In this document: piece by piece, positions 9,183 through 45,410 of the stretch
How positions within the stretch are numbered: the first letter of the stretch is position 1
Layout of the letters: each line of letters opens with the position of its first letter
Assembly: GCA_964538615.1 (NCBI GenBank)
Contig: CAZIGK010000002.1
Location: 72,655-136,654 of the forward strand
Length of the DNA: 64,000 nucleotides
Direction: 5' to 3'
Source: an uncultured Rickettsiales bacterium
GTDB taxonomy: Bacteria; Pseudomonadota; Alphaproteobacteria; Rickettsiales; RI-342
Made by a program: the position numbers and the translations under genes
Notes under the pieces: model-generated
What the model saw: only the letters and a program-made list of their open reading frames with translations
Told to the model about the DNA's origin: nothing
Database searches by the model: none

Positions 9183-11018
9183 CTACGCTTCCACAATATG
9201 CTCTGACCAGCGGCGGCTTAAGCCTTTCCGGTGTCGCTCTGAGCGGCGTTTAGGCAGCGTGAGGCATGGTAATTCCCGATGCGGAAAACTGCGAATTAAC
9301 GGCTCTATGTCCGTCGTCGGCTTGCCCAAATAATACCCCTGGCCAAATTCAACACCGCAATCTGCCAGAAAAAGTGCTACTTTTTCGTCCTCAATCATTT
9401 CACCAATGGTGGTGATATCCAGATCATTGCATAAATCAATCATCGCCTTGCACAGATGCATGCCACGGGGGCTGTTCAGACAATCGCGGACATAGCTACC
9501 GTCAATTTTTACGAAGTCAATTTCCAGTTTGCGCAAATAATCAAAGGAGGATTCGCCAACGCCAAAATCATCCAGACAACAGAGGTTACCGCTTTTGCGC
9601 AGTTGTTGTAAAAATTTATTGGCTACGTCCAAATCATGAATTTTAGCAGATTCCGTCACTTCAAAAATAATTTGCCGCCGTACAGTGTCATGCATGTCCA
9701 GAATACGCAGCAATGTATCCCGAAACAGGTCGCTACTAATGGAATTGCCCGAAAGATTTATGGAAATAAAAGGCTTGCGCCCAACCTCATAGGCTTTTTC
9801 CAGAATGCTGATGCTACGCTGGCACATGGCGAGGTCAAAATCGGCAATGATGCCAGCTTCTTCGCCAAAGGTAATGAACTGAAAAGGGTTTTGGAACTCT
9901 GTTTGCTCCTTAAAGCGTACCAACACCTCATAATGGTGCACACTGCGATCTTTCAGATCCGCAATCGGCTGAAACGCAACTTCAAAAGAGTTATCATGTA
10001 TTGTTTTTTTGAAGACGGTAATTTTTCGCACGGTTTCATCCAGCATAGCTTTGTAACCATCGCTTAAAGAGGCAAGGTCAAAATCTCCATGGTTATTCTG
10101 CGAAAAACGATTGATGGTATATTGAATGGCACGCGCACCATCTTGATGGCTAAGCCCCGGCGTATCCATCAGTAATGACTTCAAGCGAAACGAGGGCATA
10201 TCCCCACTTGCATTGGTGTGTTTTTCCGCAATAGCTTGAATATCTGTCAATATTTGACGCGTACTGAGCTGCTGGTCATGCAGCAGACCATACGTTCCGG
10301 TTTCAAAATTACCCGCCGCATCTTTTTCCAGCGCATGGCCTTTCAGGTAATGGCAAATTTCGTCTAACAAGGCTTCTGCCTGCTGCTGCGTGGCGTGTTG
10401 CAACCATTCTTCAATTTCCGGAAAATCCACCATGGTCAGAAGCACCGATTTTTCAGATCCCTGATGATGCTTCAGACACTCAATAGCCGCTTCCGCAAAC
10501 GCTTTTTCTTTTAACAAGCCACTGTAGAGATCACGCTTACCAATTTCTTCCACATTCATATCCGCCCGAAGTAGGCTGAAGGTGAGGAAAATATGGTTTT
10601 CCATATAGGGTAATTTGTAGCCAGAAACAGCAAAGGCCGAAACTTTATTATCCCTACCTTTCAGGCGGATTTTCAGTCGGTCTATCCGTTGCAGCATGCG
10701 CATCTGGGTCACCAGTTGCTCAGCATGCTTGCGGTCAGAATCATCAATAAAACCAAGTAGTGAGGCTTTTTTCATTTCCTGCGGCGAAACCCCAAGCAGA
10801 GATGACGTCGCACCATCCGCAAAAAGAATGTCCGCTTTATCATTGATTTCCAATAAAATATCCGCGCTAGCAAAAGCAAATGCCACAAATCTGTCTCTAT
10901 CTTGCCGCATGAGGGTCGCCATATCCACGCCGGTGCCGTGTGCCGTCATCTGGTCGTCTCCATCCCCGTTTTCGTTCCTTGCCAGTTCTTTGTTGCGAAA
11001 GGCCAATAAAAGCATCAT
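9183..11018 (-). CDS. PAS / degenerate GGDEF / EAL-domain protein (c-di-GMP phosphodiesterase type)
   Basis: EAL-domain motifs EVLVRF, FEVTES, DDFGVGESSF, KIDGSYV, GEMIEDE and GQGYYLGKP. No GG(D/E)EF motif is present in the middle domain. The N-terminal segment is PAS-like. The true start may be an internal Met. Confidence 0.8.
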   Translation of the reverse strand: MMLLLAFRNKELARNENGDGDDQMTAHGTGVDMATLMRQDRDRFVAFAFASADILLEINDKADILFADGATSSLLGVSPQEMKKASLLGFIDDSDRKHAEQLVTQMRMLQRIDRLKIRLKGRDNKVSAFAVSGYKLPYMENHIFLTFSLLRADMNVEEIGKRDLYSGLLKEKAFAEAAIECLKHHQGSEKSVLLTMVDFPEIEEWLQHATQQQAEALLDEICHYLKGHALEKDAAGNFETGTYGLLHDQQLSTRQILTDIQAIAEKHTNASGDMPSFRLKSLLMDTPGLSHQDGARAIQYTINRFSQNNHGDFDLASLSDGYKAMLDETVRKITVFKKTIHDNSFEVAFQPIADLKDRSVHHYEVLVRFKEQTEFQNPFQFITFGEEAGIIADFDLAMCQRSISILEKAYEVGRKPFISINLSGNSISSDLFRDTLLRILDMHDTVRRQIIFEVTESAKIHDLDVANKFLQQLRKSGNLCCLDDFGVGESSFDYLRKLEIDFVKIDGSYVRDCLNSPRGMHLCKAMIDLCNDLDITTIGEMIEDEKVALFLADCGVEFGQGYYLGKPTTDIEPLIRSFPHRELPCLTLPKRRSERHRKGLSRRWSEHIVEA

Positions 11019-12092: not shown

Positions 12093-14240
12093 TTATTCCA
12101 TAATGTGCTTGCCGCGTTTGGCGACAACATTGGCTAATGCCAGCACCACCCGACGGTCGTAGCGGCTTTCCATCTCCTTTAGCAGCGTATTGATGGCTTC
12201 TTCACTGGTGAGTGCTTCCCGGAAGGCGCGGGGACTCACCATGCTGACAAAGGCGTTACAAGCAGAAATAATACGTGCGGTCAGCAGAATAGCTTCTCCG
12301 CACAACCCCAACACACCACTACCATCCCATAGTTCTTTGCATTGGCGTATGGTTTCTGCCACATCCCCTTCAAACTCGACATCCTGAAGCATATCTGCCG
12401 TCTCTACAATAGAATGGCGTATTTGCTGTAATTCCATGGCGGATAATGTACCCGGCTGAAGCAACAGCTCTTCCGGTACAAATATTTTACCCAAATTCAT
12501 CAGGTTACCCGCAATTTCCACCGTTTTAACCTGCTGCACTGGCAGTTCCATTTCTTCCGCCACATGACGCGCCAGTTTCGCCACACGGCCAGAATGCCCG
12601 GCTGTGAAAGGATCGCGGCGATCAATCAGGCGCATCAGGGTTTGCACCAATTGCTGAGAGAGGCGCTCTGTTTTTTCTTTTTCCTGTACCACCTCGGTAA
12701 TATCCTGTGCGACAACCAGCACGCCTTCTGTGGTATGGTCGGCTTCTCCGGTTGGGAAAGCCGCAATAGGGATATAGCTGGTGTGGTAAATTACCCGTTT
12801 CTCCTGCTCATATTGCTCCCATATACGCTGGCAGGGTTGCTGCTCATCTAGTACTTGCTGTACCTGAGGCAAATGACGTTGCGCTTCATGACTGCCCAGC
12901 ACAGCAAGCAGGCTTTTGCCCGCAATATCGTCCGCCTGTACCTGCAAGCGGGTCGCAAATTGTCGGTTGGCAAACAGGCAGGTACCGGAAGCTGTGGTGA
13001 GAAACATTTGTGCTGGCTCGTGAGACGAAATAGCATCCAGTGCGGCCTGATGCTCCGCTAAATGCGAGGCGAGCAACGCCACTTCATCCGCCCGTTGCAG
13101 AGTCATATGACGCCACCACCAGATAATGCCGCTTAACAGCAGGGTCAAAATAAGCCCTCCCGCCAGCACCATCCGCTGGATACGCAGGCTGGATTCCGCC
13201 AACATGCTACTTTGCGGAATCTGGCTGACCAGAAACCAGCCCGTTGCAGCAACCTGATGTGTCAGAGCAAAACTGCGCTCCCCCGTGTGGCTGTAGCCTG
13301 CCTTCAGGCGCCCCGGCTGTTGCAAGGCACGATACGCAGCCGTAGAAGAGGGAAGGTCAGGCCATTCCTGCAAGGCAGGACGACCCGATCCCCCAAGTAC
13401 CAGCATATGTTTGTCCGGCAGACGATACATCAGCTGATGGGTTAAGCCTGCTAAAGCACCTGCTGCGGGTTGCAGGTGCTTTAGCAATTCCTCTTCCAGT
13501 GGCTGAATCCCCAGTAACCAGCCGTTTTGATCCTCTGCACGGGGTAGCCCCTGCACGGTATAGACGGGAACAGCAAACAACAACACATGCTGCTTGCGAA
13601 ACATGACGTGATCCAGCACATGGGCTTCGGCCAAGGGCAGGCGGCGTAACTGGCTTTTCACGGCGTCTGGCAGAGGCTGCACCTGACGCGAAAAAATGAG
13701 CGGATTCCAATGCTTGTCATATAACCCAATGCCTGAAACATGTGTCTGGATAGGGGTGGGGTTATGCGGCAGCCCCATCTGCGATGATTCTGTCTCGAAT
13801 CCACCTTTGCTGGCTGCCAGTTGTAATTGCAGCCGCAGGTAGGCCAGTTCAGGTGAGCTATAACTGGTGTCAGGTGCACGGGTCTCTGTGGGGGTGATCT
13901 CTGGGGATGGTGTGGTGGCCTCTGCTGCTGGGGACGCGACATCCGGTTGCGGCAGAGCTTCCGAGAGGTAGAGGGTGAAACTATCCTGTCGGGCAAGGGT
14001 TTGCAGCACATTCATGCGGGAAGCCAGCCATTCTTCCAGATGCAGGCTGTGGGAATGGTTGACCGTATTCAGATAATCATAAACGGTTAGGCGATCCCGT
14101 TGATGCGCTTCCCGCATCAGGTAAGCCATGAGCGCCATGGCCAGCAGCGTCACCAGCAACAGCACGACCAATAACGTGCGTACCGTCGCAGGCATTTTAT
14201 GCAATTGGCGCAGGCTGAGCAGGGCACGGTAGCTGGGCAT
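12093..14240 (-). CDS. Membrane sensor: TM, ~300-aa periplasmic domain, TM, PAS, catalytically degenerate HD-GYP domain
   Basis: Hydrophobic segments VRTLLVVLLLVTLLAMALMAYL and MVLAGGLILTLLLSGIIWWW, followed by a PAS-like block. The HD-GYP fold is recognisable (DPFTAGHSGRVAKLA). However, LHDIGK reads LMNLGK and HHExxDGSGYP reads CKELWDGSGVL. Confidence 0.8.
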   Translation of the reverse strand: MPSYRALLSLRQLHKMPATVRTLLVVLLLVTLLAMALMAYLMREAHQRDRLTVYDYLNTVNHSHSLHLEEWLASRMNVLQTLARQDSFTLYLSEALPQPDVASPAAEATTPSPEITPTETRAPDTSYSSPELAYLRLQLQLAASKGGFETESSQMGLPHNPTPIQTHVSGIGLYDKHWNPLIFSRQVQPLPDAVKSQLRRLPLAEAHVLDHVMFRKQHVLLFAVPVYTVQGLPRAEDQNGWLLGIQPLEEELLKHLQPAAGALAGLTHQLMYRLPDKHMLVLGGSGRPALQEWPDLPSSTAAYRALQQPGRLKAGYSHTGERSFALTHQVAATGWFLVSQIPQSSMLAESSLRIQRMVLAGGLILTLLLSGIIWWWRHMTLQRADEVALLASHLAEHQAALDAISSHEPAQMFLTTASGTCLFANRQFATRLQVQADDIAGKSLLAVLGSHEAQRHLPQVQQVLDEQQPCQRIWEQYEQEKRVIYHTSYIPIAAFPTGEADHTTEGVLVVAQDITEVVQEKEKTERLSQQLVQTLMRLIDRRDPFTAGHSGRVAKLARHVAEEMELPVQQVKTVEIAGNLMNLGKIFVPEELLLQPGTLSAMELQQIRHSIVETADMLQDVEFEGDVAETIRQCKELWDGSGVLGLCGEAILLTARIISACNAFVSMVSPRAFREALTSEEAINTLLKEMESRYDRRVVLALANVVAKRGKHIME

Positions 14241-14288
14241 GGAAAATACGCCTGTTCTTTACGTTTCAGAAACTGCCGTCACTCTAGA

Positions 14289-14966
14289 ATGCACCCTATG
14301 AAGACGCAATCATTTCGAACCATAGCCATGCTTTTTTTATGCCCCACAATATATAGTGTCGGGCTTGGCATATTTTTGTTGTTTGCCATAGTGGCATCGC
14401 CCGTATGGGCGGCTTTTCCGACCTATTTTTCCGCTCCGCATCGGGAATCGGAAGATTTGTCTATTTTTAAAAAATGGGGCAGGGTGATGCATACTCACCC
14501 CAAAGATTTGCAAGCCGCCAGCCCCTTGTGCAGCAGCACGCAACTATGCCCGCCGGATATGTGGCAGCGGTATCTAGCTCAGCTACAGGGGCTTTCCCGC
14601 AGAGCGCAAATCGAACAGGCGCACCGTATGTTAAATCGCTCCGCATATATAACCGACATGGTGAACTGGGGAATGCAGGATTACTGGGAAACCCCGCTGG
14701 AGTTCATGCTGAATCAGGGCGATTGCGAAGATTATGCGATTGCCAAATACATGTTACTACGGGCAGCAGGGCTACCCGCAGAACAGATGCGCATTGTGAT
14801 TCTACAAGATATAAACCTGAATGAAATGCACGCTATTTTAGTGGTATCCCACGAGGGGAGGGCACTGGTGCTGGATAATTTTCAGCCTAACGTGGTGGAT
14901 AGTCGCCGTATTGTGCATTACCGCCCGATTTATGCTCTAAACGAAGCTAAATGGTGGCGGCATTAA
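14289..14966 (+). CDS. Periplasmic transglutaminase-like cysteine peptidase (BTLCP / LapG family)
   Basis: Signal/TM segment FRTIAMLFLCPTIYSVGLGIFLLFAIVASPVWA. Catalytic context is GDCEDYAIAKYMLL (Cys), NEMHAILVV (His) and LVLDNF (Asp). I prefer the start at ATG 14289 over the longest ORF start at 14199, which would overlap the divergent gene. Confidence 0.8.
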   Translation: MHPMKTQSFRTIAMLFLCPTIYSVGLGIFLLFAIVASPVWAAFPTYFSAPHRESEDLSIFKKWGRVMHTHPKDLQAASPLCSSTQLCPPDMWQRYLAQLQGLSRRAQIEQAHRMLNRSAYITDMVNWGMQDYWETPLEFMLNQGDCEDYAIAKYMLLRAAGLPAEQMRIVILQDINLNEMHAILVVSHEGRALVLDNFQPNVVDSRRIVHYRPIYALNEAKWWRH

Positions 14967-14987: not shown

Positions 14988-15695
14988 TCAACATCCACCT
15001 AATACCGCCTCAACCTGACCCGCACGTGCCTGCTCATCGTGTGCTTTGGCCGCCTGCAGCAAATCAGAGTATTGGTGTGGGTTTAAAATGTTGCGCCCCT
15101 TTTCATTGGTCGCCGTCATCAGCAGGTTCATGGCCGGTTCAATCTCTCCGTGAATGACGACCGTCGTATCCGGACACAGCACGGCAGCGGCTTCATCCAC
15201 CTGCAGGCGACTGAACGGAGAACCCAGCGGATGAGTGGAAATACGTTGCTGCAACTGCGCGCGCACATGTGCCGCCAAATTCACGTCCTGCATATCAATG
15301 ACTAGCATACCATGCTCTTGATGGTATTGCATAGGATAGACGGGTGGTGGTGCAGTAAGCTGTGCAGTAAGGGACTGCACATGCAGCTTGGCCGCAGCAG
15401 CATCTTCTTGTGCTAGAAGTGTGTATCCCTCTGCCATCGCATGGGATAACGACAGGGCAGAAGCCACATCTACCACAGTTTCCAGATAAGGCCCTACAAT
15501 ATCCACCGTAAACTGGTTGTTGCCTTGCCCCTGTCTAATGACATAAGAATCATGCTTGAAGATATCCATTAGAGCAGGCGTCCATTTTTCTGCGTCTGCA
15601 ACGGTGTTAAATACCAAGCGTAGGCGATCGGCCTCCAGAATAATCATTTCCTGAAGATCGCGTGAGTGTGGAGTGGCAACGCCATGACCGAACAT
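14988..15695 (-). CDS. Hypothetical protein, no recognisable family
   Basis: 235-aa ORF that fills the gap between flanking genes without overlap. I recognise no motifs. Confidence 0.45.
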   Translation of the reverse strand: MFGHGVATPHSRDLQEMIILEADRLRLVFNTVADAEKWTPALMDIFKHDSYVIRQGQGNNQFTVDIVGPYLETVVDVASALSLSHAMAEGYTLLAQEDAAAAKLHVQSLTAQLTAPPPVYPMQYHQEHGMLVIDMQDVNLAAHVRAQLQQRISTHPLGSPFSRLQVDEAAAVLCPDTTVVIHGEIEPAMNLLMTATNEKGRNILNPHQYSDLLQAAKAHDEQARAGQVEAVLGGC

Positions 15696-17992: not shown

Positions 17993-19423
17993 TTATGCCT
18001 GTAACTTACGGTAAAAGGTTGATTTTGCCATACCCAACCGTTTGGCAGCCTGAGTGATATTGCCGCCGCACTGCGCCAGCGTTATTTCCATCGCGTCCTG
18101 CTCAAGTTGCTGCATGGTTTTATAGCGGCCATCCGCATCTTGCAGCGGGATATAGACACCACTTTGATTGGTATGCCGACCTGGGATAGTCACATTGCTG
18201 CTTTGTGCGGCCGTTCCTGCATCAATCGGCGTAGGCTCTGGATGCAAATGCGCCAGTAAATCCGGGGTAATTGCCTGCACATCACTGAGCACCAATGCCC
18301 GATGCAGCAAATTTTCCATCTCCCTCACATTTCCCGGCCATGGTTGACGTTGTAGAAAAACTTCGGCGTCCGGCGTCAGGTAACGTGGCGGCAGCATATC
18401 ACTGGCGGAAATACGCTGAATAAAATAATGCGCCAGCGGCAGAATATCCTGAGGTCGTTGACGCAGCGGCGGCAAGGTAATAGGCAGCACATGCACCCGA
18501 AAGAATAAATCTTCCCGAAAACGGCCAGCCCGCACTTCTTCCTGCAAATCCCGGTGTGTAGCGGCAATCAGACGAATATTCACCTTCACAGGACGACTGG
18601 CGCCCACAGGTTCCACCTCGCGTTGTTGCAGCGCACGCAGCAATTTCACCTGCGCATCCGGTGGCAACTCGCCAATTTCATCCAGAAACAGAGTACCACC
18701 CTCTGCTTCCCGTAGCTTACCAATGCTACGGGCAATAGCGCCTGTAAATGCCCCTTTTTCGTGTCCAAACAATGTGCTTTCCACCAAATGCTCAGGGATA
18801 GCACCACAGTTAATAGCAATGAATGGTGCGCCTTGCCGACGTGATTCCCCATGGATAGCACGTGCGAAAAGCTCCTTCCCGGCCCCTGTCTCGCCGCTTA
18901 TCAATACCGGAATATCGGATGCAGCAGCCTTACGCCCCATGTTCACAACTTCAGCCAAACCCGCATCATGCCCGATGAGATCATGGAACGAGAGCGCACC
19001 TTCCCGGTCACGCCGCAAACGGGACACCTCCCGCGTGAGAGCAGAAAAACGAATGGCATTTTGCAATACCATCTCTAATTGATCCGATTGCACAGGTTTG
19101 ACCAGATATTCATATGCCCCTTGCTTAATGGCACGCACAGCCTGCGCGGTATCTTCCTCACCGGTCAGCATAATCACCGGAATATCCGGGCGGTATTTGC
19201 GTAGATGCTCCAATGTTTCAAAACCGTTCATGACAGGCATATGAATATCCAGCAAAATAGCAGATATAGCATCGGCAGGTGCGGCTTGCAGGCAGCTTAA
19301 AGCCTCGCGGCCATGATTGGCACACTTCACTGAATAACCGAGTTTATTGGACAGCAAAGCCTGTGCAATGCGTTGCTGAATGGCATCATCTTCTACCAAC
19401 AAAATACAACCACCGGTACTCAT
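17993..19423 (-). CDS. Sigma54-dependent response regulator (NtrC-family bacterial enhancer-binding protein)
   Basis: REC domain (ILLVEDD ... ILLDIHMP ... LVKP). AAA+ domain with Walker A GETGAGKE and the sigma54-contact motif GAFTGA. C-terminal HTH GNITQAAKRLGMAKSTFYRKL. Confidence 0.9.
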   Translation of the reverse strand: MSTGGCILLVEDDAIQQRIAQALLSNKLGYSVKCANHGREALSCLQAAPADAISAILLDIHMPVMNGFETLEHLRKYRPDIPVIMLTGEEDTAQAVRAIKQGAYEYLVKPVQSDQLEMVLQNAIRFSALTREVSRLRRDREGALSFHDLIGHDAGLAEVVNMGRKAAASDIPVLISGETGAGKELFARAIHGESRRQGAPFIAINCGAIPEHLVESTLFGHEKGAFTGAIARSIGKLREAEGGTLFLDEIGELPPDAQVKLLRALQQREVEPVGASRPVKVNIRLIAATHRDLQEEVRAGRFREDLFFRVHVLPITLPPLRQRPQDILPLAHYFIQRISASDMLPPRYLTPDAEVFLQRQPWPGNVREMENLLHRALVLSDVQAITPDLLAHLHPEPTPIDAGTAAQSSNVTIPGRHTNQSGVYIPLQDADGRYKTMQQLEQDAMEITLAQCGGNITQAAKRLGMAKSTFYRKLQA

Positions 19424-19489
19424 GCCACTCCCCTTCTCTATGCGACATCTTACATGGCTGAGCATACAACAAATGAATGCTTGTGCGTA

Positions 19490-19507
19490 GCAATTTGAGA
19501 AAATTGC
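19490..19507. promoter_or_regulatory. 18-bp palindrome, candidate enhancer/operator site in the divergent promoter region
   Basis: GCAATTT-GAGA-AAATTGC. It lies about 90-105 bp upstream of the sigma54-like element at 19598. Confidence 0.3.
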
Positions 19508-19597
19508 GTACCAATATTCTCATATCGAAACGCTTTACGCAAGTACAATCCACATGCTGATGCACCTATCCTACTGTTATAACAAAATTATGCCCGT

Positions 19598-19613
19598 TGG
19601 CACAGGGCATGCA
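19598..19613 (+). promoter_or_regulatory. Candidate sigma54 (-24/-12) promoter for the pseudo-receiver operon
   Basis: TGGCACAGGGCATGCA has GG/GC at exact consensus spacing, with the -12 element ATGC instead of TTGC. It lies about 55 bp upstream of ATG 19668. Confidence 0.4.
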
Positions 19614-19667
19614 CTTATTTTCATACCATGCAAAAGAGTGACGGCATTAGGTGAAGGAGTAAACGAG

Positions 19668-20504
19668 ATGCATAGCATAGACCACACCACCCTGCCCCAT
19701 CTGATTCCCCTGATTGAAGATGCACAGGCTCTTGGCACGCCTCTTCGCGGCATTCTTCTCTGCTTCAGCCATTTACCACGCCTTCCTTTCTCTCTGGAGG
19801 AAATGGCCGCCAAAGCAGTACAAACAGCTCGGCAAACCCTGCCAACCACAGAACTGGCGGCCTATTGTTCTCAGGATGGTGATATCCTGTTATTGGCTGC
19901 GACATTGGGAAAAACAGACGCAGAAACCATACTGCAAAGCATTGCTTCACTGGCTGAACAACCTCTTAAACCGTATTGGGCAGATTACTTTTACGTCGCA
20001 ACCCGCGCCAGTGGGCTTATTTCATGGCTGGAGAGCAAAGCCACAATGCTACGGCAACAGCCCTCAAGAGAGATAATCTTACCCCTCATGGAGCCAGAGG
20101 TCTGGCAATGTATGCGCAGCAACCGTAGCCGTGCAGTGGTGCTGCTGGTTTCCCCATCCCTGCCCCAGCAACAGGCGCTAGAGAATGCTTTCCACCATGA
20201 TGCCGATGTGCATTGGGTGCAGGATAGCCAGCACATCATGGCCTACTACCGAAGCTACGTACCGGACATGGTGTTGCTGGATATGGCACTCCCTGAAGAA
20301 AGCGCTGAAAAAACGCTTCGGCATTTGCTTAGCAAAGATAGTGCGGCCTACGTACTCATGCTGGGCAGCGAAGCGCAACGTGAAGCCATGGCCACCTGCT
20401 TGCAGCACGGGGCTGCCGGATTTCTTCTTCCCCCCTATCAAACCGAAAAACTGATGTTTTATCTGGCGGAAAGCCGCACACATCATCAGCAAGCAGCGTT
20501 GTAG
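19668..20504 (+). CDS. Protein with a C-terminal degenerate receiver (pseudo-receiver) domain
   Basis: GAAGGAG RBS before ATG 19668. The C-terminal REC-like fold keeps the central Asp (MVLLDMALPE). It lacks the N-terminal acidic pair (VVLLVSPS) and the conserved Lys (GFLLPPY instead of ..KP.). Confidence 0.6.
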   Translation: MHSIDHTTLPHLIPLIEDAQALGTPLRGILLCFSHLPRLPFSLEEMAAKAVQTARQTLPTTELAAYCSQDGDILLLAATLGKTDAETILQSIASLAEQPLKPYWADYFYVATRASGLISWLESKATMLRQQPSREIILPLMEPEVWQCMRSNRSRAVVLLVSPSLPQQQALENAFHHDADVHWVQDSQHIMAYYRSYVPDMVLLDMALPEESAEKTLRHLLSKDSAAYVLMLGSEAQREAMATCLQHGAAGFLLPPYQTEKLMFYLAESRTHHQQAAL

Positions 20505-20570
20505 CAGAGCGGATATCTGGTGGCTCGCCACTTTATCCACAACAAGACGCCCCTGAGAAGGAGTACACCT

Positions 20571-20765
20571 ATGAAACAAGAACTATTTCTCATCTGGCTG
20601 TGCGCCAATATGGTTGCCATCTCTCTCATTCTGCTGGGCTGGGCAGCGCAGGCAGAATGGTTTGACGCAATGGATGGTGTTTTGGATATATCACAAATCT
20701 TTGTCGCGCAGTTTGTTTTGGGCATATACATGTTCTTTGGTGGAAAACCCGCTTGCCATATATAA
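20571..20765 (+). CDS. Small (64 aa) two-TM membrane protein
   Basis: GAAGGAG RBS before ATG 20571. Two hydrophobic helices are present (LFLIWLCANMVAISLILLGWAA and IFVAQFVLGIYMFFGG). Confidence 0.45.
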   Translation: MKQELFLIWLCANMVAISLILLGWAAQAEWFDAMDGVLDISQIFVAQFVLGIYMFFGGKPACHI

Positions 20766-20985
20766 TAGCAACGAAAAAGGCTCGTATTAGAGATACCCCC
20801 CACTGCAAGGCTTTCTTACCTTGCTTGCCATTTATGCCGTAAAAAGAAAAATACACGCCATAGTTTTAATTTATTCTACACCAACTCTCCTGCAAAATAC
20901 AAAGAAGCCTTAGTGATTGTTTTCGCAAAATCCAAAAAATGTGACAACACTGCTCAGGCCGTCAATGCAGAGAGGCCGTTGCAAG

Positions 20986-23900
20986 ATGAAGGCACCCCGA
21001 ACCAACCACTCTACGGATAACGGCTCGCCAATTGCTTCAGAATGGGCAGACATGCAGTACCCATTACTGAACTCTATTATTGCTTCTTCCCATGATGCTA
21101 TTATAGCCCGAACGCTGGATGGGACGGTGACCTTCTGGAACCATGGAGCAGAATTGCTCTATGGTTACACAGCGAACGAGATGCTCGGTCACCCTATTGA
21201 ACGCTTGTTTGTGGACGAACAGGCGGATGAAGAAAACGCCATGCTCTCCAGAATACTGGCAGGAGAACGCATCAACCAGTGGCACGCACGTCGTAAAACA
21301 CGTGATGGGCAGTTGTTGAATGTATCCCTGACTGTTTCTCCCATTCACAATGCTGAAGGCCACGTGATTGGTATCTCCAAAATTGCGCATGATATTACGC
21401 GCATCAAGCAGACAGAAGATCACCTGCGTGAAACAAAAAACATGCTGGAACTAGCGGGAGAAATGGCAGGTCTGGGGTACTGGCGGGTGGATTTACAAAC
21501 GGGGGTGCCGTTCTGGTCATCCCAAACCTATCGGATTCATGGCGTACCTGAAGACAAACCTCAGCCGGATATGCAACAGGCGCTTGCGTTTTATCATCCG
21601 GAAGACCGGGCAGATGTCCAGACCGTTGTACGTGAAGCTTTGGAGTGCGGCAGAGATTTTCACTTTCGTAAGCGCATCCTCCGCGCAGATAACGGAGCTG
21701 TTCGCGTGGTGGAAGCTATTGGGCGAATTGAAACAAAACAGGATGGCACACCTTACAGTCTGATTGGCACCCTACAGGATGTCACCGAGCAGGAAGCAGA
21801 ACGGCAGGCATTGGCAGAAAGTGAAGAACGCTTTGCTCTGGCCGTCAAAGGATCCGCCGGTGGGGTGTGGGATTGGAATATTCAAAAAGACACCATGTAT
21901 TACTCTCCGCGATTCAAGGAAATGCTGGGATATGCCGAGCATGAATTCCCTAACCGCTTTTCCGCGCTGGTAGAACGACTCTACCCGGAGGATGAGTGCC
22001 TGTTCCACAATGCGCTACGCAATCACCTGGAAGCACAGGAACCCTATGACATTGAATATCGCCTGCGCCTGAAAGATGGGCATTACCGCTGGTTTCGTGC
22101 CCGTGGGCAAGCCTTATGGCGCGAAGGAAAGCCTGTACGAATGTGCGGCCACATGGCGGATATCAGCCAACGCAAACTCTCCGAAAGCAGACTACAAGAG
22201 TCATACCGAAAGTTGGAATGGCAGCAGGTAGAGCTGGAAGCCGCCAAAGAAAAAGCAGAAGAGGCCGCACGTCTGAAAGCAGAGTTTCTGGCCAATATGA
22301 GTCATGAGCTACGCACACCGATGAATGGTATCATTGGCATGACCAGCCTGCTACTTAGCACAGAGCTGCAACCCACCCAGCAACTGTATGCCGAGACGGT
22401 CGCGCAATCCGCGGAGAACTTGCTGCAACTACTGAATGACATACTGGACTTCTCTAAAATTGAAGCAGGGAAGATGCAGCTAGAGATCATCCCGTTTGAT
22501 CTGTATCTATTGCTGGAAGAAGTCGCCCGCCTGACTCTGGCGCGTTCTCTGGAAAAAGGGGTGGAAACCCTGCTACGCATCGCCCCCAATACGCCACGCT
22601 ATGTCATGGGGGATCCAAGCCGCCTGCGGCAAATATTGCATAACCTTGCCAGCAATGCGCTGAAATTCACAGAAAAAGGGCATATTATCCTTAACGTGGA
22701 ATGGCAACAGACCCCCAAAGGAGAGCGTTTTCTGTTCGAGGTAGAAGATACGGGCATCGGCATACCGGATGATAAATTAGACTATATTTTCAATAAGTTC
22801 AGTCAGGCAGATAGCTCAACTTCCCGCAAATTCGGCGGCACCGGCCTAGGGCTGGCCATATGTAAAGAACTGGCACACATGATGCAGGGTAGCATTGGGG
22901 TAGATAGCCAGTTAGGGCAAGGCTCCCGCTTCTGGTTTACCGCACATTTGCAGGAAGACGCAAACATTGTGCATCTGAATGCACGCAACCAGCCAGAACT
23001 ACTGGCGGGTTGTCGCCTGCTTATAGTGGATGATAACGCCACTGCCCGTATCATCATGCAGGAATATCTATCCGCTTATCATGCGGAGGTGATACTGGCA
23101 GAATCCGGCAGAGAGGCGCTGGATCTGCTGTCCAGCCATCCTTCAGATTATTTTGATATTGTGATTGTGGATTACCGCATGCCGGAAATGGACGGTAAAG
23201 AGCTGGCCGGGCATATCCGCCAAAACCCGCAGTGGCAACGCATGCGGCTGCTGATGGTATCCTCCTCTCCCATGCGTGGGGACGGAGCGGAAATGCGAGA
23301 ATTGGGCTTTGATGCCTACCTGACCAAACCGCTGCAAGCAGCAGACCTGACCCAGACAGTCGCCCTCCTGCTACAGGCACGCGCACAAGAGGCCACCCTG
23401 CCCATGGTCACCAGCCACCACCTGCGGGAAGCACAGGCATATCAGGTACAAAGGCTGAGCCAAAGCTGCTTTACAGGGCGGCATATTCTGCTGGTAGAAG
23501 ATTACCCTGTCAATCAGATGGTGGCAAAAACCATGCTGGAACAACTGGGCTGTACGGTCAGCATCGCCAATCATGGACGGGAAGCACTCGCAGCATGCAC
23601 CCCGGAGAACCATGGCTATGACCTGATACTGATGGATTGTCAAATGCCAGAGATGGATGGATATGAAGCAACCCGACGCATTCGGCAGTTAGAGGCGGCG
23701 CAGCAACGCCCTCCGGTTCCCATCATTGCTTTCACAGCGAATGCAATGAAAGGGGACAATGATAAATGCTTTGCCGCCGGAATGGACGATTACCTGACCA
23801 AACCCATCCGGAAACTGGACATGACCGTGATGCTGGAACGCTGGTTAACCGGATACGAGCCAAAGGGACAGATGACAGCGGATACTACACCCCTGACACC

Positions 23901-24276
23901 GTCCCCGCAGCCATCGGCGGAACTCTCCCTCCCCCGCTTGCAGTTAGAAACCTATCGCTACCTATGCGATGTGTTGGGCGCCGCCGCTGCCGAGCTAACC
24001 GCACAGTTTTTGCGGCAAACCCATCAGCAGTTGGAAACCCTGTCCGGACTGCTGCAAACCAGCCCCTACCCATATTCGGAGATTGCCGATGTGGTACACC
24101 CGGTCAAATCCTCTGCTTCACAATTCGGCGCAGAACGCCTGAGCGCCCTCGCCCGCCGTATAGAGCAAGCTGCCAGAGCTGCAGAAGAAGGGTTTAGCTT
24201 CCTTGCTGCTTATGAACAACTGCAACAGGAATATGAGGCATTGGCCATGGAGTTAAGCCGCTATCAACAGGATTAG
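20986..24276 (+). CDS. Hybrid sensor histidine kinase: PAS x3, HisKA, HATPase, REC, REC, Hpt
   Basis: H-box SHELRTPMNGIIGM, with G-boxes DTGIGI and GGTGLGLAICK. Two receivers are present (LLIVDDN...VIVDYRMPEMDG...LTKP and ILLVEDY...LILMDCQMPEMDG...LTKP). C-terminal Hpt is VVHPVKSSASQFGAERL. The start could be 20917, 20965 or 20986. Confidence 0.9.
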   Translation: MKAPRTNHSTDNGSPIASEWADMQYPLLNSIIASSHDAIIARTLDGTVTFWNHGAELLYGYTANEMLGHPIERLFVDEQADEENAMLSRILAGERINQWHARRKTRDGQLLNVSLTVSPIHNAEGHVIGISKIAHDITRIKQTEDHLRETKNMLELAGEMAGLGYWRVDLQTGVPFWSSQTYRIHGVPEDKPQPDMQQALAFYHPEDRADVQTVVREALECGRDFHFRKRILRADNGAVRVVEAIGRIETKQDGTPYSLIGTLQDVTEQEAERQALAESEERFALAVKGSAGGVWDWNIQKDTMYYSPRFKEMLGYAEHEFPNRFSALVERLYPEDECLFHNALRNHLEAQEPYDIEYRLRLKDGHYRWFRARGQALWREGKPVRMCGHMADISQRKLSESRLQESYRKLEWQQVELEAAKEKAEEAARLKAEFLANMSHELRTPMNGIIGMTSLLLSTELQPTQQLYAETVAQSAENLLQLLNDILDFSKIEAGKMQLEIIPFDLYLLLEEVARLTLARSLEKGVETLLRIAPNTPRYVMGDPSRLRQILHNLASNALKFTEKGHIILNVEWQQTPKGERFLFEVEDTGIGIPDDKLDYIFNKFSQADSSTSRKFGGTGLGLAICKELAHMMQGSIGVDSQLGQGSRFWFTAHLQEDANIVHLNARNQPELLAGCRLLIVDDNATARIIMQEYLSAYHAEVILAESGREALDLLSSHPSDYFDIVIVDYRMPEMDGKELAGHIRQNPQWQRMRLLMVSSSPMRGDGAEMRELGFDAYLTKPLQAADLTQTVALLLQARAQEATLPMVTSHHLREAQAYQVQRLSQSCFTGRHILLVEDYPVNQMVAKTMLEQLGCTVSIANHGREALAACTPENHGYDLILMDCQMPEMDGYEATRRIRQLEAAQQRPPVPIIAFTANAMKGDNDKCFAAGMDDYLTKPIRKLDMTVMLERWLTGYEPKGQMTADTTPLTPSPQPSAELSLPRLQLETYRYLCDVLGAAAAELTAQFLRQTHQQLETLSGLLQTSPYPYSEIADVVHPVKSSASQFGAERLSALARRIEQAARAAEEGFSFLAAYEQLQQEYEALAMELSRYQQD

Positions 24277-35736: not shown

Positions 35737-37968
35737 TTAGCCCACTAGACGGTTCAGCTCTTCCAGCAGGGTATCTGCGGTAGAGATGACCTTGGTGTTA
35801 GATTGATACGCACGCTGCGCCACAATCATATCGGTTAGTTCTTCAGAAAGCTCAACATTGGATGCCTCTACCACTCCGGCACGGACGTTACCGACCCCGT
35901 TGGTTTTGGCTTCACGCAGGTTGAAGTCTCCGGCTTCCTGCGTGGCGGCCCATACGTTACCGGTAAGCGCCTCCAGACCATTGTAGTTAGGGAAATCAGC
36001 CAATGGAAGCTTGTACAGTTTTTGGTTTTCACCATTGCTGTAGTTCGCAATCACATATCCTTCTTCATCAATGGTGACATTGATAAGAGAGCCAACTTCT
36101 GCACCATTCTGGTTAATGAAGGCAACGTTGTAATCTGCGGCAAACTGGCTGAGGCCTGAGGTGTCCCCAAACTCATCGACACCGGTTGTACCTGCCGGAA
36201 AGCCTGCATTCCCCCAGTCCATCGTTATCTCACTGGGAGACGCACCATTGTTCCAGATGATGTTGATGGGGTTACTCAAGCCGGAGGAAATACTCCGCAA
36301 GCTACCATCCCCGTTGAAGACGATATTGCCGCGTGCAATCTGATTCCCCACCAGTGCCCCATTAATATCCCCATCATCGGATGCATAGACTTCCGCTGCC
36401 CAGGTATTATCCGCCACTTTCAGGTAACTGATGGTAATGTTGTGGCCAGTCCCTAAGGCATCGTAGATACGTACATTTCGGCTGAAGTGCGGGGTTACTG
36501 CACCGTCAGACATATTTTTGTCAATATTGGCAGGGTCATAGAGTTCGGAGAAGATGTTCTCCCCCACATCGAAGGCGCTATCCGCATCCGCATCAGCCCA
36601 AAGCCCCATCTCCTGCACCAAATCATAGGCAGCACCACCGTTGGCCACCATATTCACGTCCGTAAAGGTAACCGTTCCCAGCGGATCTTCCGTATAAATC
36701 CCCAGTGCTGTATCAGACAGCGGGTTTTCCAGCACAAAGGTAATACCATCGGATTCACCCACTTTGTTGGCCAAATCCCGCAACGTACCAAAACGAGGGG
36801 TAGAACCTGCGGCCACCGTATCATACATACCCAGACTGCCCACAAAATCTGTTGCGCCGGCATTGGTGAAGGTCATGGCGGAATTAGCGTCATCTGGCAC
36901 AATCACCAACTGATCGTTGACAATGCGCGCATTCAAACCCGGTGTATTGGAAATAGCCTGTGCCAGTGTTTGCATGTTATTAAACTGAGGCACATCCGCC
37001 AACGGATTGGGTGAGGATTGTTTATATTCAAAGGTGTAGGGGGTTCCATCCACATCAATAATAAACTGAGAATCCACACCGGAAGCCGGAGCAGAACCAG
37101 AGGTAAAGAAGGTTTGAGTGGTGGAGGTGATATCCACACCACCCGCACCAGAGAAATCCACACCACCCGCGCCCGTAATCGCACCAGAGGTACTAAAACC
37201 ACCATATTCAAAGTCATAAATCAGACCGCCGCTGGTCGTAACTCTTAGGGTAGTTCCCAAACCATCTGTGACACCGCTACCGTTATCCACGTTATCCTGC
37301 ACCAGAGTACCCGCAATGGGGGCAATCGGGTCATCAGCACTAATACTGCTGTTGAGACCAGAAGAAAAGTTGATAATTTGCCCATTACCACGTGCGACTG
37401 GCTGACGTGCATCCAAATTAGTGCCGACGTCAATTTGGGTGGTTGCGGCGACCACACCATTGCCAAACTCAATATTCACCGTTTCCAGTGATTGGGTGGT
37501 GGAAAAGGGCACCGTATTGACGTTACCGGGCTGCCCAGGCAGACGCCCTTCACGATCCAGTGGCCAGCCTTGCAGGTAAAATCCACCCTGACGACTATAC
37601 ATATTGCCCAGCGCATCCACTTCAAACTGGCCAGCACGGGTAAACATCATGCGGGCATCGCTGGCCTGACTGTCTGGCCGCTGGCTGACCACAAACATAC
37701 CACTGCCCTGAATAGCAATATCCGTATTGGAATCGGTCGAGGTCAGCAACCCCTGCTTAGAAACCAACTGACGCACTCCGGCCAGCACCCCGCCCGGATT
37801 GTACGAAACTGAGGAAGCCGAGTTGTTCACCAACGTTTCAAAGTACGCTTTATTGGCTTTATAGCCGACGGTATTGACGTTGGAAATATTGTCGGAGATG
37901 GCACCGATTTTGGTACCTTGCCCCTTAATGCCGGAAACGCCTGAATAGAGAGAACCGTAAATGGACAT
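35737..37968 (-). CDS. flgE: Flagellar hook protein FlgE (large, 743 aa)
   Basis: N-terminus MSIYGSLYSGVSGIKGQGTKIGAISDNISNVNTVGYK. C-terminus VEASNVELSEELTDMIVAQRAYQSNTKVISTADTLLEELNRL. Confidence 0.9.
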   Translation of the reverse strand: MSIYGSLYSGVSGIKGQGTKIGAISDNISNVNTVGYKANKAYFETLVNNSASSVSYNPGGVLAGVRQLVSKQGLLTSTDSNTDIAIQGSGMFVVSQRPDSQASDARMMFTRAGQFEVDALGNMYSRQGGFYLQGWPLDREGRLPGQPGNVNTVPFSTTQSLETVNIEFGNGVVAATTQIDVGTNLDARQPVARGNGQIINFSSGLNSSISADDPIAPIAGTLVQDNVDNGSGVTDGLGTTLRVTTSGGLIYDFEYGGFSTSGAITGAGGVDFSGAGGVDITSTTQTFFTSGSAPASGVDSQFIIDVDGTPYTFEYKQSSPNPLADVPQFNNMQTLAQAISNTPGLNARIVNDQLVIVPDDANSAMTFTNAGATDFVGSLGMYDTVAAGSTPRFGTLRDLANKVGESDGITFVLENPLSDTALGIYTEDPLGTVTFTDVNMVANGGAAYDLVQEMGLWADADADSAFDVGENIFSELYDPANIDKNMSDGAVTPHFSRNVRIYDALGTGHNITISYLKVADNTWAAEVYASDDGDINGALVGNQIARGNIVFNGDGSLRSISSGLSNPINIIWNNGASPSEITMDWGNAGFPAGTTGVDEFGDTSGLSQFAADYNVAFINQNGAEVGSLINVTIDEEGYVIANYSNGENQKLYKLPLADFPNYNGLEALTGNVWAATQEAGDFNLREAKTNGVGNVRAGVVEASNVELSEELTDMIVAQRAYQSNTKVISTADTLLEELNRLVG

Positions 37969-38055
37969 GACGTTTACTCCTTTATAATGCCTCTGGAAAT
38001 GGATGCTGTATTTGGCTTACTGGGTTGAATAAAAATGATGGCTAACCATGTGTCC

Positions 38056-38760
38056 CTAACTGGTGACCGCAGGTTTAGTGGCTTTAATGGAGGTGATGGA
38101 ACTCATGGGTACGCCGTATTTGCCAATGAGCAGCACTGGCTCTTCGGATTCCATGTAGACACCATCTATGATGCCACTGACCGTAGTGGAAAGTTCTTTG
38201 GGGCTGCCGTTACTATCCAGTATAGAGACAGTCACGCTATACATGCCATCCGGCTGCTGGTTGCCATCCGTTCCTTTGCCATCCCAGGTGAAACGATGCA
38301 CACCAGGGCCATACCATGCCGGGTCATCGAAGGCTTTTTTGTACACCAGTGCGCCTTTTTCGTTGTAGACAAAGATTTCGCCCTGACGGACGGCTTCTTC
38401 TACGGTGAAGCTGATATCGGTCGAGCCATTGTACAGTTGCGTGACATTGCCCACCGTCTCTACGGATTTGCCAATATAACTAACGGGATCGTAATTACCT
38501 TTTGAGCTTAGCTCGATCAGGTCATCCAGTTTTTTATTGGTATTGATGCTTTGTTCCACCTCCGTGAAGGCGACAATCTGGTTGGTGAATTCCGAGGCAT
38601 CCTGAGGATCTGTGGGATCCTGATTTTTCAATTGTGTGGTAAAAAGCGTCAGAAAGCTGCTGAAATCCTCCGCCAATTGGGAAAGTCCGGCATCCGAAAC
38701 TTTTTTAGCGGTTTCCTGTGTTTGCTGGGTTGTCAGGCCTGTTGCGACTGAAGTGACCAT
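38056..38760 (-). CDS. flgD: Flagellar hook assembly/capping protein FlgD
   Basis: FLTLFTTQLKNQDPTDPQDASEFTNQIVAFTEVEQ, plus a C-terminal FlgD Ig-like region. Confidence 0.9.
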   Translation of the reverse strand: MVTSVATGLTTQQTQETAKKVSDAGLSQLAEDFSSFLTLFTTQLKNQDPTDPQDASEFTNQIVAFTEVEQSINTNKKLDDLIELSSKGNYDPVSYIGKSVETVGNVTQLYNGSTDISFTVEEAVRQGEIFVYNEKGALVYKKAFDDPAWYGPGVHRFTWDGKGTDGNQQPDGMYSVTVSILDSNGSPKELSTTVSGIIDGVYMESEEPVLLIGKYGVPMSSITSIKATKPAVTS

Positions 38761-38775
38761 ATACCGTTCCTTCCT

Positions 38776-40440
38776 TTATACCCGAATATCCACGTTGCCT
38801 TGCGTACTGAAGGCGTACAATGCTTCTGCAACCGAGAGAACGGGTGCATCCAAATCCATGCCACTGTTGGCGGATGATTGTTGCATCATATGAGCAAAAT
38901 CATCCTGCTGTGCGGAAGCCTGATGCTGCGAGCCATGGTGACCAAACTCACCACCAGATTGACTGCCGCTGCTAAAACTAAACTCCGCCTGCTGATTTTC
39001 AAATTTCAGCCCGGCATCCTGCAACATGCGTTGCAGTTCTTTGCTATCCCGTTGCAGCATGTCCATAGTATCTACACTATCGGCATGAATGCTGATGCTG
39101 CGAATGGTATCATCCCGCATGCTGATACGAATATCTACACCGCCCAGCTCTTCAGGATGCAATTGCAAACGAATGCTATCCTGCCCAGTGGCCGCCGCAT
39201 GGCGAATATGCATAAGCACCTGATCGCTGGGGGCAGCATAACTATACAACGGACGGCTATGGCTTTGCGCTGCTTCCGGCATGGTGCGCGCCATAGCTTC
39301 CAGCGTGTGGGCAGCCGGTGGTAGTTGTATGGCTTGTGTAGGTTCCGTCGCCAGCGGCAGGTTGTGCTGCTTGGCTATGTGTTGCAGATGATCCGTAAAA
39401 CCAGCGGTGTTATCCGTGGTTGCTGCTGTTTGCGCCCCTTGAAAAGCATCCGCACCATCCTGCGCAAAGGACTGCAACAGAGAATCCCCCCCCTGCCCTT
39501 GCTGCTGCTGACTGGTGGAGGCATCATGCTGGGCAGAGGTCACGGCTGGCACATCAAGGGTAGGAGCTTGTTGCCCCTGCTGCCCTGAGGGAGCGGTAGC
39601 ACTGCCGGAAGCATATTTAGCGGTTTCCGCCACCATCACGGCAGTGGGCTGCTGCACAGCGATCCATTGCGGCAATACAGAAGCGGTTTCCACCATCATT
39701 TCTGTGGGCATGGATTCTGCTGCCGATAATTCTGCGGCCTGCTTCACATTCGCTGTCCCCATAGGCTGGCTGGCCGACTGAGGAGCGGAATCGGCGGCAA
39801 AAAGTTTCTGGCCTAGCTGCTGTTTGCGCTGCTGTATTTGCTGAATGAATGATTGGATAGCGCCATCATCCACACCGGACGCCGCCTCTGCCGGAACCAC
39901 ACCCGTTGCCACTACCTGCGGCTGCACTGCATCCGCCATTGTTTGCAACCACTGCTGGGTTTGCAGCCAATGATGACTGGTGACATCCGATAACGTGGCC
40001 GCACGATTATCCGTAAGATCGGTCGGTGCAGCGGCAGGCACCGCCGCATCTTTTTGCGCAAAAGCCGCTTGTAGCTGGCTTTGCACCTCCTGCGGCAATG
40101 TTTGCCACTGCTCTTGCGAAAGCATGCCTTGCAAAGCATCCGGCATGACAGGGGATACAGTTTCCGCTGGCAGCGCATTAGGAGCGGCAATTTCTGCCGG
40201 CAATGCATCCGCACCATGGAGAGAGAGCCATTGCCCGGCATTCCAGACGCTTTGATTCCCATCGGCTGGCACAGCTTGCCCGGCACTAGCATCCCCCATC
40301 AACAACCCAAGCAATCCGGCAAAGCCACCTGCCTGCCCCACACTCTCGCCCTGCCCGAACAGCCCTTGCTGTCCGGCAGCAAACGAGCCGGTGGCACCGA
40401 CCTTTTGCTGGCTGAGAAGTGAGTTGAGAATGGCGCTCAT
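38776..40440 (-). CDS. fliK: Flagellar hook-length control protein FliK
   Basis: Gln/Ala-rich disordered N-terminal two thirds. The C-terminal Flg_hook-type domain reads IRLQLHPEELGGVDIRISMRDDTIRSISIHADS...LQDAGLKF. Position is immediately upstream of flgD. Confidence 0.8.
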   Translation of the reverse strand: MSAILNSLLSQQKVGATGSFAAGQQGLFGQGESVGQAGGFAGLLGLLMGDASAGQAVPADGNQSVWNAGQWLSLHGADALPAEIAAPNALPAETVSPVMPDALQGMLSQEQWQTLPQEVQSQLQAAFAQKDAAVPAAAPTDLTDNRAATLSDVTSHHWLQTQQWLQTMADAVQPQVVATGVVPAEAASGVDDGAIQSFIQQIQQRKQQLGQKLFAADSAPQSASQPMGTANVKQAAELSAAESMPTEMMVETASVLPQWIAVQQPTAVMVAETAKYASGSATAPSGQQGQQAPTLDVPAVTSAQHDASTSQQQQGQGGDSLLQSFAQDGADAFQGAQTAATTDNTAGFTDHLQHIAKQHNLPLATEPTQAIQLPPAAHTLEAMARTMPEAAQSHSRPLYSYAAPSDQVLMHIRHAAATGQDSIRLQLHPEELGGVDIRISMRDDTIRSISIHADSVDTMDMLQRDSKELQRMLQDAGLKFENQQAEFSFSSGSQSGGEFGHHGSQHQASAQQDDFAHMMQQSSANSGMDLDAPVLSVAEALYAFSTQGNVDIRV

Positions 40441-40490
40441 GAAGCAGGTTCCAATAAAGGGTTAGAAACAAAAAGACTCAGGTTTATGAA

Positions 40491-40506
40491 AGCAATAACT
40501 ATGCCA
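40491..40506 (-). promoter_or_regulatory. Candidate sigma54 (-24/-12) promoter for fliK-flgD-flgE
   Basis: Minus strand reads TGGCATAGTTATTGCT with exact spacing. It lies about 50 bp upstream of the fliK ATG and directly after the flaG stop. Confidence 0.6.
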
Positions 40507-40512
40507 AAGTGA

Positions 40513-40902: not shown

Positions 40903-40984
40903 GAAAATGGTTCCTAAGGCATGTAATGGCGCGGTGCGGTTACTGCGGGGGAGAAAGCCGTAGCCCCCTCCCTACCCGTAAGGC

Positions 40985-42688: not shown

Positions 42689-42747
42689 GGCGTCTACTCC
42701 CGAGGTTGAGGGTGCTACTGCACCGATGTTTCAACTGACAGAGTAGA

Positions 42748-42763: not shown

Positions 42764-42874
42764 AAATGTAATAAACATTATAAAACAAAAGAATAAACAT
42801 TTATTGAGACAGAATTTTCCCAACTTTCATAGGCAGACCATATGAACAGAACGGTCTGGGCAGACAGAACAAAG

Positions 42875-45400: not shown

Positions 45401-45410
45401 GCAAAAAGTT

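Follow-up and report, generated by a model that had tools for sequence, protein, structure and literature searches.

The closest described relatives of the locus analyzed here are DvhD and DvhG (DVU1020 and DVU1019) from Desulfovibrio (Nitratidesulfovibrio) vulgaris Hildenborough, reported in PNAS in 2024 and in Nature Communications in 2026 (PMC10990149; PMC13090378). DvhD was found to bind cyclic di-GMP (c-di-GMP) at 322 nM and to hydrolyze it with none of the metals tested, and in a reconstituted Pseudomonas fluorescens system it governs DvhG, the LapG-like protease encoded next to it, in dependence on c-di-GMP, which makes it functionally analogous to LapD (PMC10990149; PMC13090378). Structures of DvhD are available for the periplasmic dCache domain (9RC2) and for the cytoplasmic PAS and HD-GYP domains (9RC0 and 9RBZ). 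We analyzed a stretch of 64,000 nucleotides (hereafter the window) from an uncultured Rickettsiales bacterium (assembly GCA_964538615.1, contig CAZIGK010000002.1, positions 72,655 to 136,654), in which a 715-amino-acid protein with a degenerate HD-GYP domain (the receptor; 12093-14240, minus strand) is encoded next to a 225-amino-acid protease of the transglutaminase-like cysteine peptidase family BTLCP (14289-14966, plus strand). We consider it likely that the two genes constitute an inside-out c-di-GMP switch for adhesin release of the DvhD/DvhG, and hence Lap-like, type. Since the homologs listed in the Dvh papers already include alphaproteobacterial genera (78 homologs in Supplementary Data 1, with Sneathiella, Kiloniella, Pelagibius, Fodinicurvata, Denitrobaculum, and Oceanibacterium among them), the pair is a divergent further member of a published system type.

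The order of transmembrane (TM) helix, periplasmic domain, TM helix, PAS domain, and HD-GYP fold, which had been put forward in an initial annotation of this DNA, was borne out by Pfam, by the sequence itself, and by an AlphaFold2 (AF2) model. The model was built on a 60-sequence family alignment (A1) and reached a mean predicted local distance difference test score (pLDDT) of 86.2; together with the open reading frame (ORF), Pfam, and Foldseek, it defines the gene product as DvhD-like. All receptor features lie on the minus strand. Two hydrophobic helices enclose an extracytoplasmic region of approximately 310 residues: TM1 (residues ~22–42; 14115-14177) is a hydrophobic run, LLVVLLLVTLLAMALMAYLM, within the AF2 helix 18–84, and TM2 (residues ~355–378; 13107-13178; MVLAGGLILTLLLSGIIWWW) passes into a juxtamembrane helix, the AF2 helix being continuous from residue 348 to 407. 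The N-terminus and a stretch behind TM2 are basic, which suggests, by the positive-inside rule, that the N-terminus is located inside the cell and the middle domain in the periplasm. The cytoplasmic part comprises a PAS domain (residues ~402–518; 12687-13037), which was matched by Pfam PAS_4 (residues 413–518, 2e-9) and PAS (1.6e-6) and aligns with its DvhD counterpart in 9RC0, and the degenerate HD-GYP domain (12147-12641), which was matched at residues 534–698 by HD_5, the HD-GYP-type HD domain of Pfam, with 8.7e-32 and is predicted to bind c-di-GMP without hydrolyzing it. Within the receptor, conservation is highest in the HD-GYP segment (mean top-residue frequency 0.61, 48 positions ≥0.8).

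The periplasmic domain (residues ~43–354; 13179-14114) is dCache-like according to its AF2 secondary structure and the Foldseek match to 9RC2. In the model it consists of a long helix, a disordered insert (residues 96–129), a helix (residues 130–146), and two α/β lobes. The insert is rich in P, T, A, and S (PQPDVASPAAEATTPSPEITPTETRAPDTSYSS; 13854-13955), has a pLDDT below 50, is missing from the closest family members (alignment A2), and shows no conservation in the 60-sequence family alignment, where its mean top-residue frequency is 0.10. It is flanked by the two most conserved periplasmic 15-residue segments of that alignment, residues 134–148 in first and 82–96 in second place. The conserved helix of residues 130–148 (ELAYLRLQLQLAASKGGF; 13797-13853) resembles helix α1' of DvhD and is a candidate docking surface for the protease. 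Such a role would agree with the AF3 model in the DvhD paper, in which a conserved membrane-distal patch and helix α1' are placed against the back of DvhG.

Among solved structures, the best sequence match of the receptor was not a phosphodiesterase but DvhD (9RC0, E 9e-42, residues 396–712; 9RC0 and 9RBZ are entered as "HD domain/sensory box protein"), with 33.7% identity over the PAS/HD-GYP part (105/312) and 38% over the HD-GYP domain (76/199). The A1 family profile matched 9RC0 at 2.9e-79, with active HD-GYP enzymes behind it (5Z7C, 6.9e-39; 4MCW, 1.7e-24). A Foldseek comparison of the AF2 model to the Protein Data Bank (PDB) returned 9RC0 first (target template-modelling score 0.79), followed by four chains of 9RBZ (0.85–0.87), and the best solved match of the periplasmic domain was 9RC2 (E 1.2e-6, target template-modelling score 0.72, 13% identity), the Foldseek probability being 1.00 for each of the three structures. 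Thus, all three modules of DvhD were recovered in the receptor. The succession of TM helix, dCache, TM helix, PAS, and HD-GYP domain without metal ligands is common to both proteins, and the distal Asp of the HD-GYP family is Asn in both. In contrast, the HD motif reads MN in the receptor and SQ in DvhD, the HH motif reads CK instead of MN, the GYP motif, which is intact in DvhD, reads GVL, and the equivalents of K582 and R569 are lost. Only the cytoplasmic half of the receptor aligns to DvhD by sequence, which leaves it outside the set of homologs as delimited by the DvhD authors (coverage ≥85%, E ≤1e-50).

The product of the adjoining gene was identified as a DvhG/LapG-like BTLCP cysteine protease by Pfam, NCBIfam, and PDB matches. 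Its long ORF opens at 14199 and overlaps the start of the receptor gene; the first ATG clear of the receptor gene is at 14289, from which residues were numbered, and further ATGs are found at 14298 and ~14328. Peptidase_C93/BTLCP (PF06035) was matched with 63.6 bits against a cutoff of 27, and the PDB matches include LapG from Legionella (4FGO, 4e-21) and from P. fluorescens (4U65_E, 1e-18). Alignment to the LapG structures delimits a catalytic core (residues ~89–223; 14553-14957) with an intact triad of Cys146, His181, and Asp196, which is invariant in all 69 orthologues from related loci. The assignment of this divergent neighbor to the LapG/BTLCP family with a Cys-His-Asp context, as initially annotated, is therefore supported. 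The calcium motif G-D145-C-E147-D148 is present as well, with D145 and E147 each found in 60 of the 69 orthologues, so that an adjoining BTLCP with intact triad and calcium motif is common to this locus and the Dvh system. DvhG differs in having a TM anchor and a linker of ~180 residues, whereas the protease in the window is short. Its N-terminus carries a hydrophobic segment of ~30 residues (residues ~10–41; 14316-14411) ending in VWA/A, which judging from the sequence is a putative signal peptide or membrane anchor. Between this segment and the catalytic core, the 69 orthologues define a conserved N-terminal motif (residues 47–87; 14427-14549). F47, W63, C81, and C87 are present in all of these receptor-linked proteases and F60 in 67 of them; C81 and C87 may form a disulfide in the periplasm.

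Relatives of the receptor were collected with HMMER in an exhaustive search covering 1.84 billion cluster representatives, which yielded 505 representative clusters (50% identity) at E ≤1e-30. Nearly all of the top 150 matches are ~650–735 amino acids long, and in many of them the alignment extends over the full length, periplasmic region included. The nearest relative, P0010, shares 41% identity with the receptor (3e-138). Word-indexed protein searches did not reveal the family: with the single sequence as with the 60-sequence alignment, they gave the query and distant HD-GYPs only. A scan of the genome collection with the receptor as a single protein gave no relatives. Scanning species-representative genomes with an 8-sequence alignment gave at least 225 relatives, and 80 loci were kept for neighborhood counts. 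They belong overwhelmingly to the Alphaproteobacteria (Rhodospirillales, Dongiaceae, Magnetovibrio, Thalassospiraceae, Sneathiellales, Emcibacter, and others). Three family members (L045, L074, and L021) occur in metagenome-assembled genomes labelled Bdellovibrionales, Terriglobia, and Candidatus Cybelea, and these cases could reflect horizontal transfer or binning errors.

An orthologous BTLCP gene is located directly upstream of the receptor gene in 69 of the 80 loci (E 1e-26 to 1e-53). The pairing, whose recurrence had been suggested as a check, is thus far beyond chance; for 4 of the 11 loci lacking the protease, less than 1 kb of sequence is available upstream of the receptor gene. The two genes are divergent in ~54 of the 69 loci and co-directional in ~15, and P0010 also belongs to a divergent pair, with a spacer of 88 bp. 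The spacer in the window measures 48 bp (14241-14288) and must carry both promoters if the protease starts at the ATG at 14289; no match to a sigma-70 consensus was found in these 48 bp. A terminator scan reported an inverted repeat at 13449-13486 (plus strand; 15 pairs, 8 of them G-C, 8-nucleotide loop), which falls within the coding sequence of the receptor, but on the other strand. The published neighborhoods of DvhD homologs contain type I secretion system (T1SS) genes, and the discussion in the Dvh papers is centered on Desulfovibrionales. From DvhD/DvhG, the two genes of the pair analyzed here differ in that they are divergent and stand outside any adhesin/T1SS operon.

Taken over from DvhD/DvhG by homology, the switch would operate as follows. 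The 715-residue inner-membrane protein would act as the receptor, most likely as a dimer, and its HD-GYP domain, devoid of a metal center, would bind c-di-GMP in the cytoplasm but leave it uncleaved. In DvhD, binding of c-di-GMP splays the stalk helices that lie between its PAS and its HD-GYP domain, and a similar change in the stalk could travel via the juxtamembrane and TM helices to the dCache-like domain in the periplasm. At high c-di-GMP, this domain would restrain the calcium-dependent BTLCP, probably via the conserved membrane-distal helix 130–148. At low c-di-GMP, the free protease would act on a giant adhesin of the cell surface and cleave it at a di-alanine site of the TAAG type just behind the periplasmic retention module; the adhesin would then be released and the cell would detach. 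For this genome, we infer c-di-GMP binding, the lack of hydrolysis, the direction of regulation, and the identity of the substrate from the Dvh proteins. The idea that a dead HD-GYP domain serves the logic of LapD, as initially proposed, is supported by this homology to an experimentally studied pair.

The loss of the metal center was examined residue by residue. The motifs GHSGRV, LMNLGKIFVPEELLLQPGTLS, CKELWDGSGVL, and ACNAF were verified in the receptor, in which HD has become MN, HH has become CK, and GYP has become GVL. Bellini et al. (2014) reportedly assigned the metal ligands of the active enzyme PmGH to E185, H189, H221, D222, H250, H276, H277, and D305. In our alignment to PmGH (4MCW, the chain numbering of which is offset by six from the published list), these positions correspond to F545, H549, M581, N582, S610, C634, K635, and N662 of the receptor, respectively. 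Seven of the eight ligands are therefore replaced and H549, the first His, is the sole survivor, in line with the motif readings of the initial annotation. With this degree of replacement, hydrolysis by the receptor is not expected.

The replacing residues are themselves conserved. Among 59 family members, M581 is found in 50, N582 in 58, and N662 in all, while position 610 is S or A. The positions that contact c-di-GMP are kept likewise (L599 in 56/59, M667 in 52/59, and R671 in 59/59), position 673 is aromatic or His in every member, and of the bridging-site residues R542 is present in 58 and P589 in 53. The consensus of the A1 family reads AGxLMNLGKIxVP, QExWDGSGP, and AVANAF. Conservation of both the replacing residues and the pocket positions points to a maintained ligand pocket rather than to decay. 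In the 1.8-Å complex of DvhD, the canonical contacts to c-di-GMP are made by Y652, L577, M646, E668, Y621, K582, R650, and Y523. At these eight positions, the receptor has four identical residues (L599, M667, R671, and E689) and two conservative exchanges of Tyr for Phe (F673 and F545). As most contacts are kept and the pocket is maintained in the family, the receptor is likely to bind c-di-GMP, possibly with different affinity or specificity.

Several observations weigh against assigning the pair to a c-di-GMP switch of the Dvh type. Two of the eight DvhD contacts are lost, namely Y621, the Tyr of the GYP motif (V643 in the receptor), and K582 (L604), and in DvhD both of these residues bind the same one of the phosphodiesters. 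In addition, the charge at one bridging-site position is reversed (R569 in DvhD, E591 in the receptor), and the GYP tyrosine is missing throughout the family, the consensus of which reads GSGP. At the periplasmic side, the family profile does not match 9RC2 by sequence, and the link to the DvhD dCache domain consists of a match in predicted fold (13% identity). Even for D. vulgaris, the way in which DvhG is held back by DvhD is still to be explained. The protease scored 95.9 bits against a cutoff of 320 for the NCBIfam LapG equivalog model (NF045674); it is a LapG-like BTLCP and not a LapG equivalog, as far as its sequence tells. Finally, the T1SS and adhesin substrate that the initial annotation had asked for were sought in the 64-kb window, and no T1SS, RTX, adhesin-like, or retention-module protein was found there.

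The changes in the pocket might indicate that the same protease is regulated by a signal other than c-di-GMP, with the HD-GYP domain in the sub-branch of the receptor acting purely as a scaffold or dimerization pseudoenzyme and the drive coming from the PAS domain, from a periplasmic dCache ligand, or from another nucleotide, such as 3'3'-cyclic GMP-AMP (cGAMP) or pGpG. V643, L604, and E591 would fit such a case, and so would the unusual QCKE.WDGSG[VM]LG motif that the receptor and P0010 have where the family reads GSGP. Moreover, DvhD itself also accommodates 3'3'-cGAMP, and dCache domains are usually ligand sensors, the ligand status of the dCache domain of DvhD being unresolved. However, the receptor has six of the eight canonical contacts in identical or conservatively exchanged form, the pocket ranks with the best conserved positions in the family, the HD-GYP segment is better conserved than any other part of the receptor, and no cofactor motif was recognized in the PAS domain by inspection. 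We therefore regard a signal other than c-di-GMP as unlikely. In a related scenario, to which we assign a similarly low probability, the receptor and P0010 would form a sub-branch of the DvhD family with a changed input, either through a nucleotide specificity shifted to cGAMP or pGpG or through loss of c-di-GMP dependence in favor of PAS/dCache control. Such a sub-branch may act on a non-RTX substrate encoded elsewhere and might be coupled locally to a PAS-EAL protein, apparently an active phosphodiesterase, the gene of which lies ~1 kb away.

The relatives provide information on the substrate of the proposed c-di-GMP switch. In 15 of the 80 loci, an ORF of at least 500 amino acids with at least three GGxGxD repeats lies convergently just downstream of the receptor gene, and RTX, cadherin-like, laminin-G, and Big_9 domains were detected by Pfam in these RTX-type neighbors. 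Three of them with intact N-termini have in common an N-terminal region resembling a retention module, which is followed by TAAG at ~331–350; two of the three were matched by the NCBIfam LapA retention model with E 5e-10 and 2e-9, short of its curated cutoff. By sequence, this is the layout of LapG/DvhG substrates. In another locus (L019, 5811-11516, plus strand), the large neighbor is a TPS-domain exoprotein rather than an RTX protein and recalls CdrA, the type Vb substrate of Pseudomonas aeruginosa LapG. Next to the pair of P0010 (locus L081, 1-5714; GCA_016124905.1, WGMV01000009.1), a protein of at least 3,975 amino acids with beta-helix/NosD repeats and a SapC-family gene are encoded. As the 1,632 visible C-terminal residues of this giant protein contain a single GGxGxD match, it is not a classical RTX adhesin; having no RTX array, it was left out of the evidence on adhesins. 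Possibly it represents a substrate of another type.

From the same neighborhoods it might be argued that the BTLCP processes the receptor itself, for instance in the P/T/A/S loop 96–129, or a non-adhesin protein of the envelope or periplasm, so that the module would control something other than attachment. Neither the window nor 65 of the 80 loci contain an adjacent RTX-repeat protein of at least 500 amino acids, P0010 has the giant beta-helix protein without RTX repeats instead, and the disordered periplasmic insert is unique to the receptor in the window. Against this stand the retention-module-like region and TAAG in the adjacent adhesins with intact N-termini, the lack of conservation of the insert, and the fact that the genes for LapG substrates often lie at another place in the genome, as is the case for CdrA in P. 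aeruginosa. Processing of the receptor or of a non-adhesin protein thus appears very unlikely.

That the receptor is still an active phosphodiesterase for c-di-GMP or cGAMP with unconventional catalysis, working as an outside-in sensor beside an unrelated protease gene, is least to be expected: although H549, E636, and the D639–G640 motif are kept and the fold is that of HD-GYP enzymes, the seven lost ligands are replaced by residues unable to build a bi- or trinuclear center, DvhD, which has equivalent losses, showed hydrolysis with none of the metals tried, and the adjacency of the protease in 69 of 80 loci argues against an unrelated neighbor.

The active HD-GYP phosphodiesterases PmGH (4MCW), PA4781 (4R8Z), and V-cGAP3 (5Z7C) have the fold and the overall motif spacing in common with the receptor, but their sets of metal ligands are complete. 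With only H549 kept and GVL in place of GYP, the receptor was rejected as a member of this group. The degenerate HD-GYP proteins PA2572 of P. aeruginosa (YN-GYP) and Bd1817 of Bdellovibrio (3TM8) have been proposed to fulfil regulatory, non-catalytic roles. They differ from the receptor in being cytoplasmic, in their other N-terminal domains, in having no BTLCP partner, and in their far greater distance; 3TM8 was a weaker structural match, with an E-value of 7e-6 for the family profile compared to 3e-79 for 9RC0. The Lap systems (LapD/LapG of P. fluorescens, CdgS9/LapG of Legionella, and BpfD/BpfG of Shewanella) resemble the proposed switch in several respects, namely a degenerate c-di-GMP-turnover domain used as receptor, inside-out signaling, control over a BTLCP in the periplasm by which a giant adhesin is released, and a homologous protease. 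The receptors, however, are unrelated. Neither Pfam nor NCBIfam detected LapD_MoxY_N, HAMP, GGDEF, or EAL domains on the 715-residue protein, and its identification as a LapD was therefore rejected. LapD docks LapG via a conserved Trp hairpin, whereas dCache domains of the DvhD type have no such hairpin (DvhD paper).

The other genes in the window have housekeeping, two-component, or flagellar functions. The gene at 9183-11018 on the minus strand encodes a 611-residue protein with a PAS, a degenerate GGDEF, and an EAL domain, as initially annotated; Pfam/NCBIfam and alignment confirmed this architecture, and the GGDEF motif reads ETGTY. In comparison to RbdA/PA0861 (5XGB), the full EAL catalytic set (EVL, N, ExxE, DDFG, K, E..E, and QG) is present, and the protein is therefore probably an active c-di-GMP phosphodiesterase. 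The gene is located ~1 kb from the receptor gene, with dapD in between. A homologue was found near the pair in only 2 of the 80 loci (L043 and L066), so the linkage is not conserved.

On the other side of the pair, an ORF of 235 amino acids (14988-15695, minus strand) runs convergently to the protease gene, its stop codon lying 22 bp beyond that of the protease. It has no Pfam or NCBIfam match, is a singleton in a collection of 15 billion proteins, and has no homologue in the 80 loci. A dense signaling neighborhood follows at 17993-24276, consisting of a sigma-54-type response regulator (17993-19465, minus strand), a response regulator with an uncharacterized N-terminal half (19554-20504, plus strand), and a hybrid histidine kinase of 1,119 amino acids (20917-24276, plus strand), in which several PAS domains are combined with two receiver domains and an Hpt domain. 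Synteny of the sigma-54 regulator with the pair turned out to be a false lead, as the matches at other loci were REC-domain matches of ~55 bits to short ORFs (~160–270 amino acids), and blastp returned nothing. A flagellar cluster (35737-47556, minus strand) encodes FlgE (743 amino acids), FlgD, FliK, FliD, and a pair of paralogous flagellins whose lengths (567 and 562 amino acids) are unusual.

In the initial annotation, no described example of a dead HD-GYP domain in a LapD-like role had been known. This does not hold, since DvhD/DvhG was published in 2024, with structures in 2026 and a homolog list including alphaproteobacterial genera; in the literature available to us, we found the BTLCP/HD-GYP pair described in the two Dvh papers only. 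That a dead HD-GYP domain can replace the dead GGDEF-EAL domains of LapD as the gate of a LapG-type protease had thus already been established with the Desulfovibrio proteins. Details that distinguish the pair in the window are MN instead of SQ at the HD motif, the loss of GYP and of the Lys582 equivalent, the divergent orientation, and the lack of a linked adhesin or T1SS. To the known system, our survey adds a large, mostly alphaproteobacterial family in which the "dead" residues (MN and N) are conserved, the GYP tyrosine is missing family-wide, and the receptor/protease pair usually stands outside an adhesin operon. Proteins of this kind are typically labelled HD-GYP phosphodiesterases and are better read as receptors. 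The family also offers comparative targets for how a dCache domain restrains the protease.

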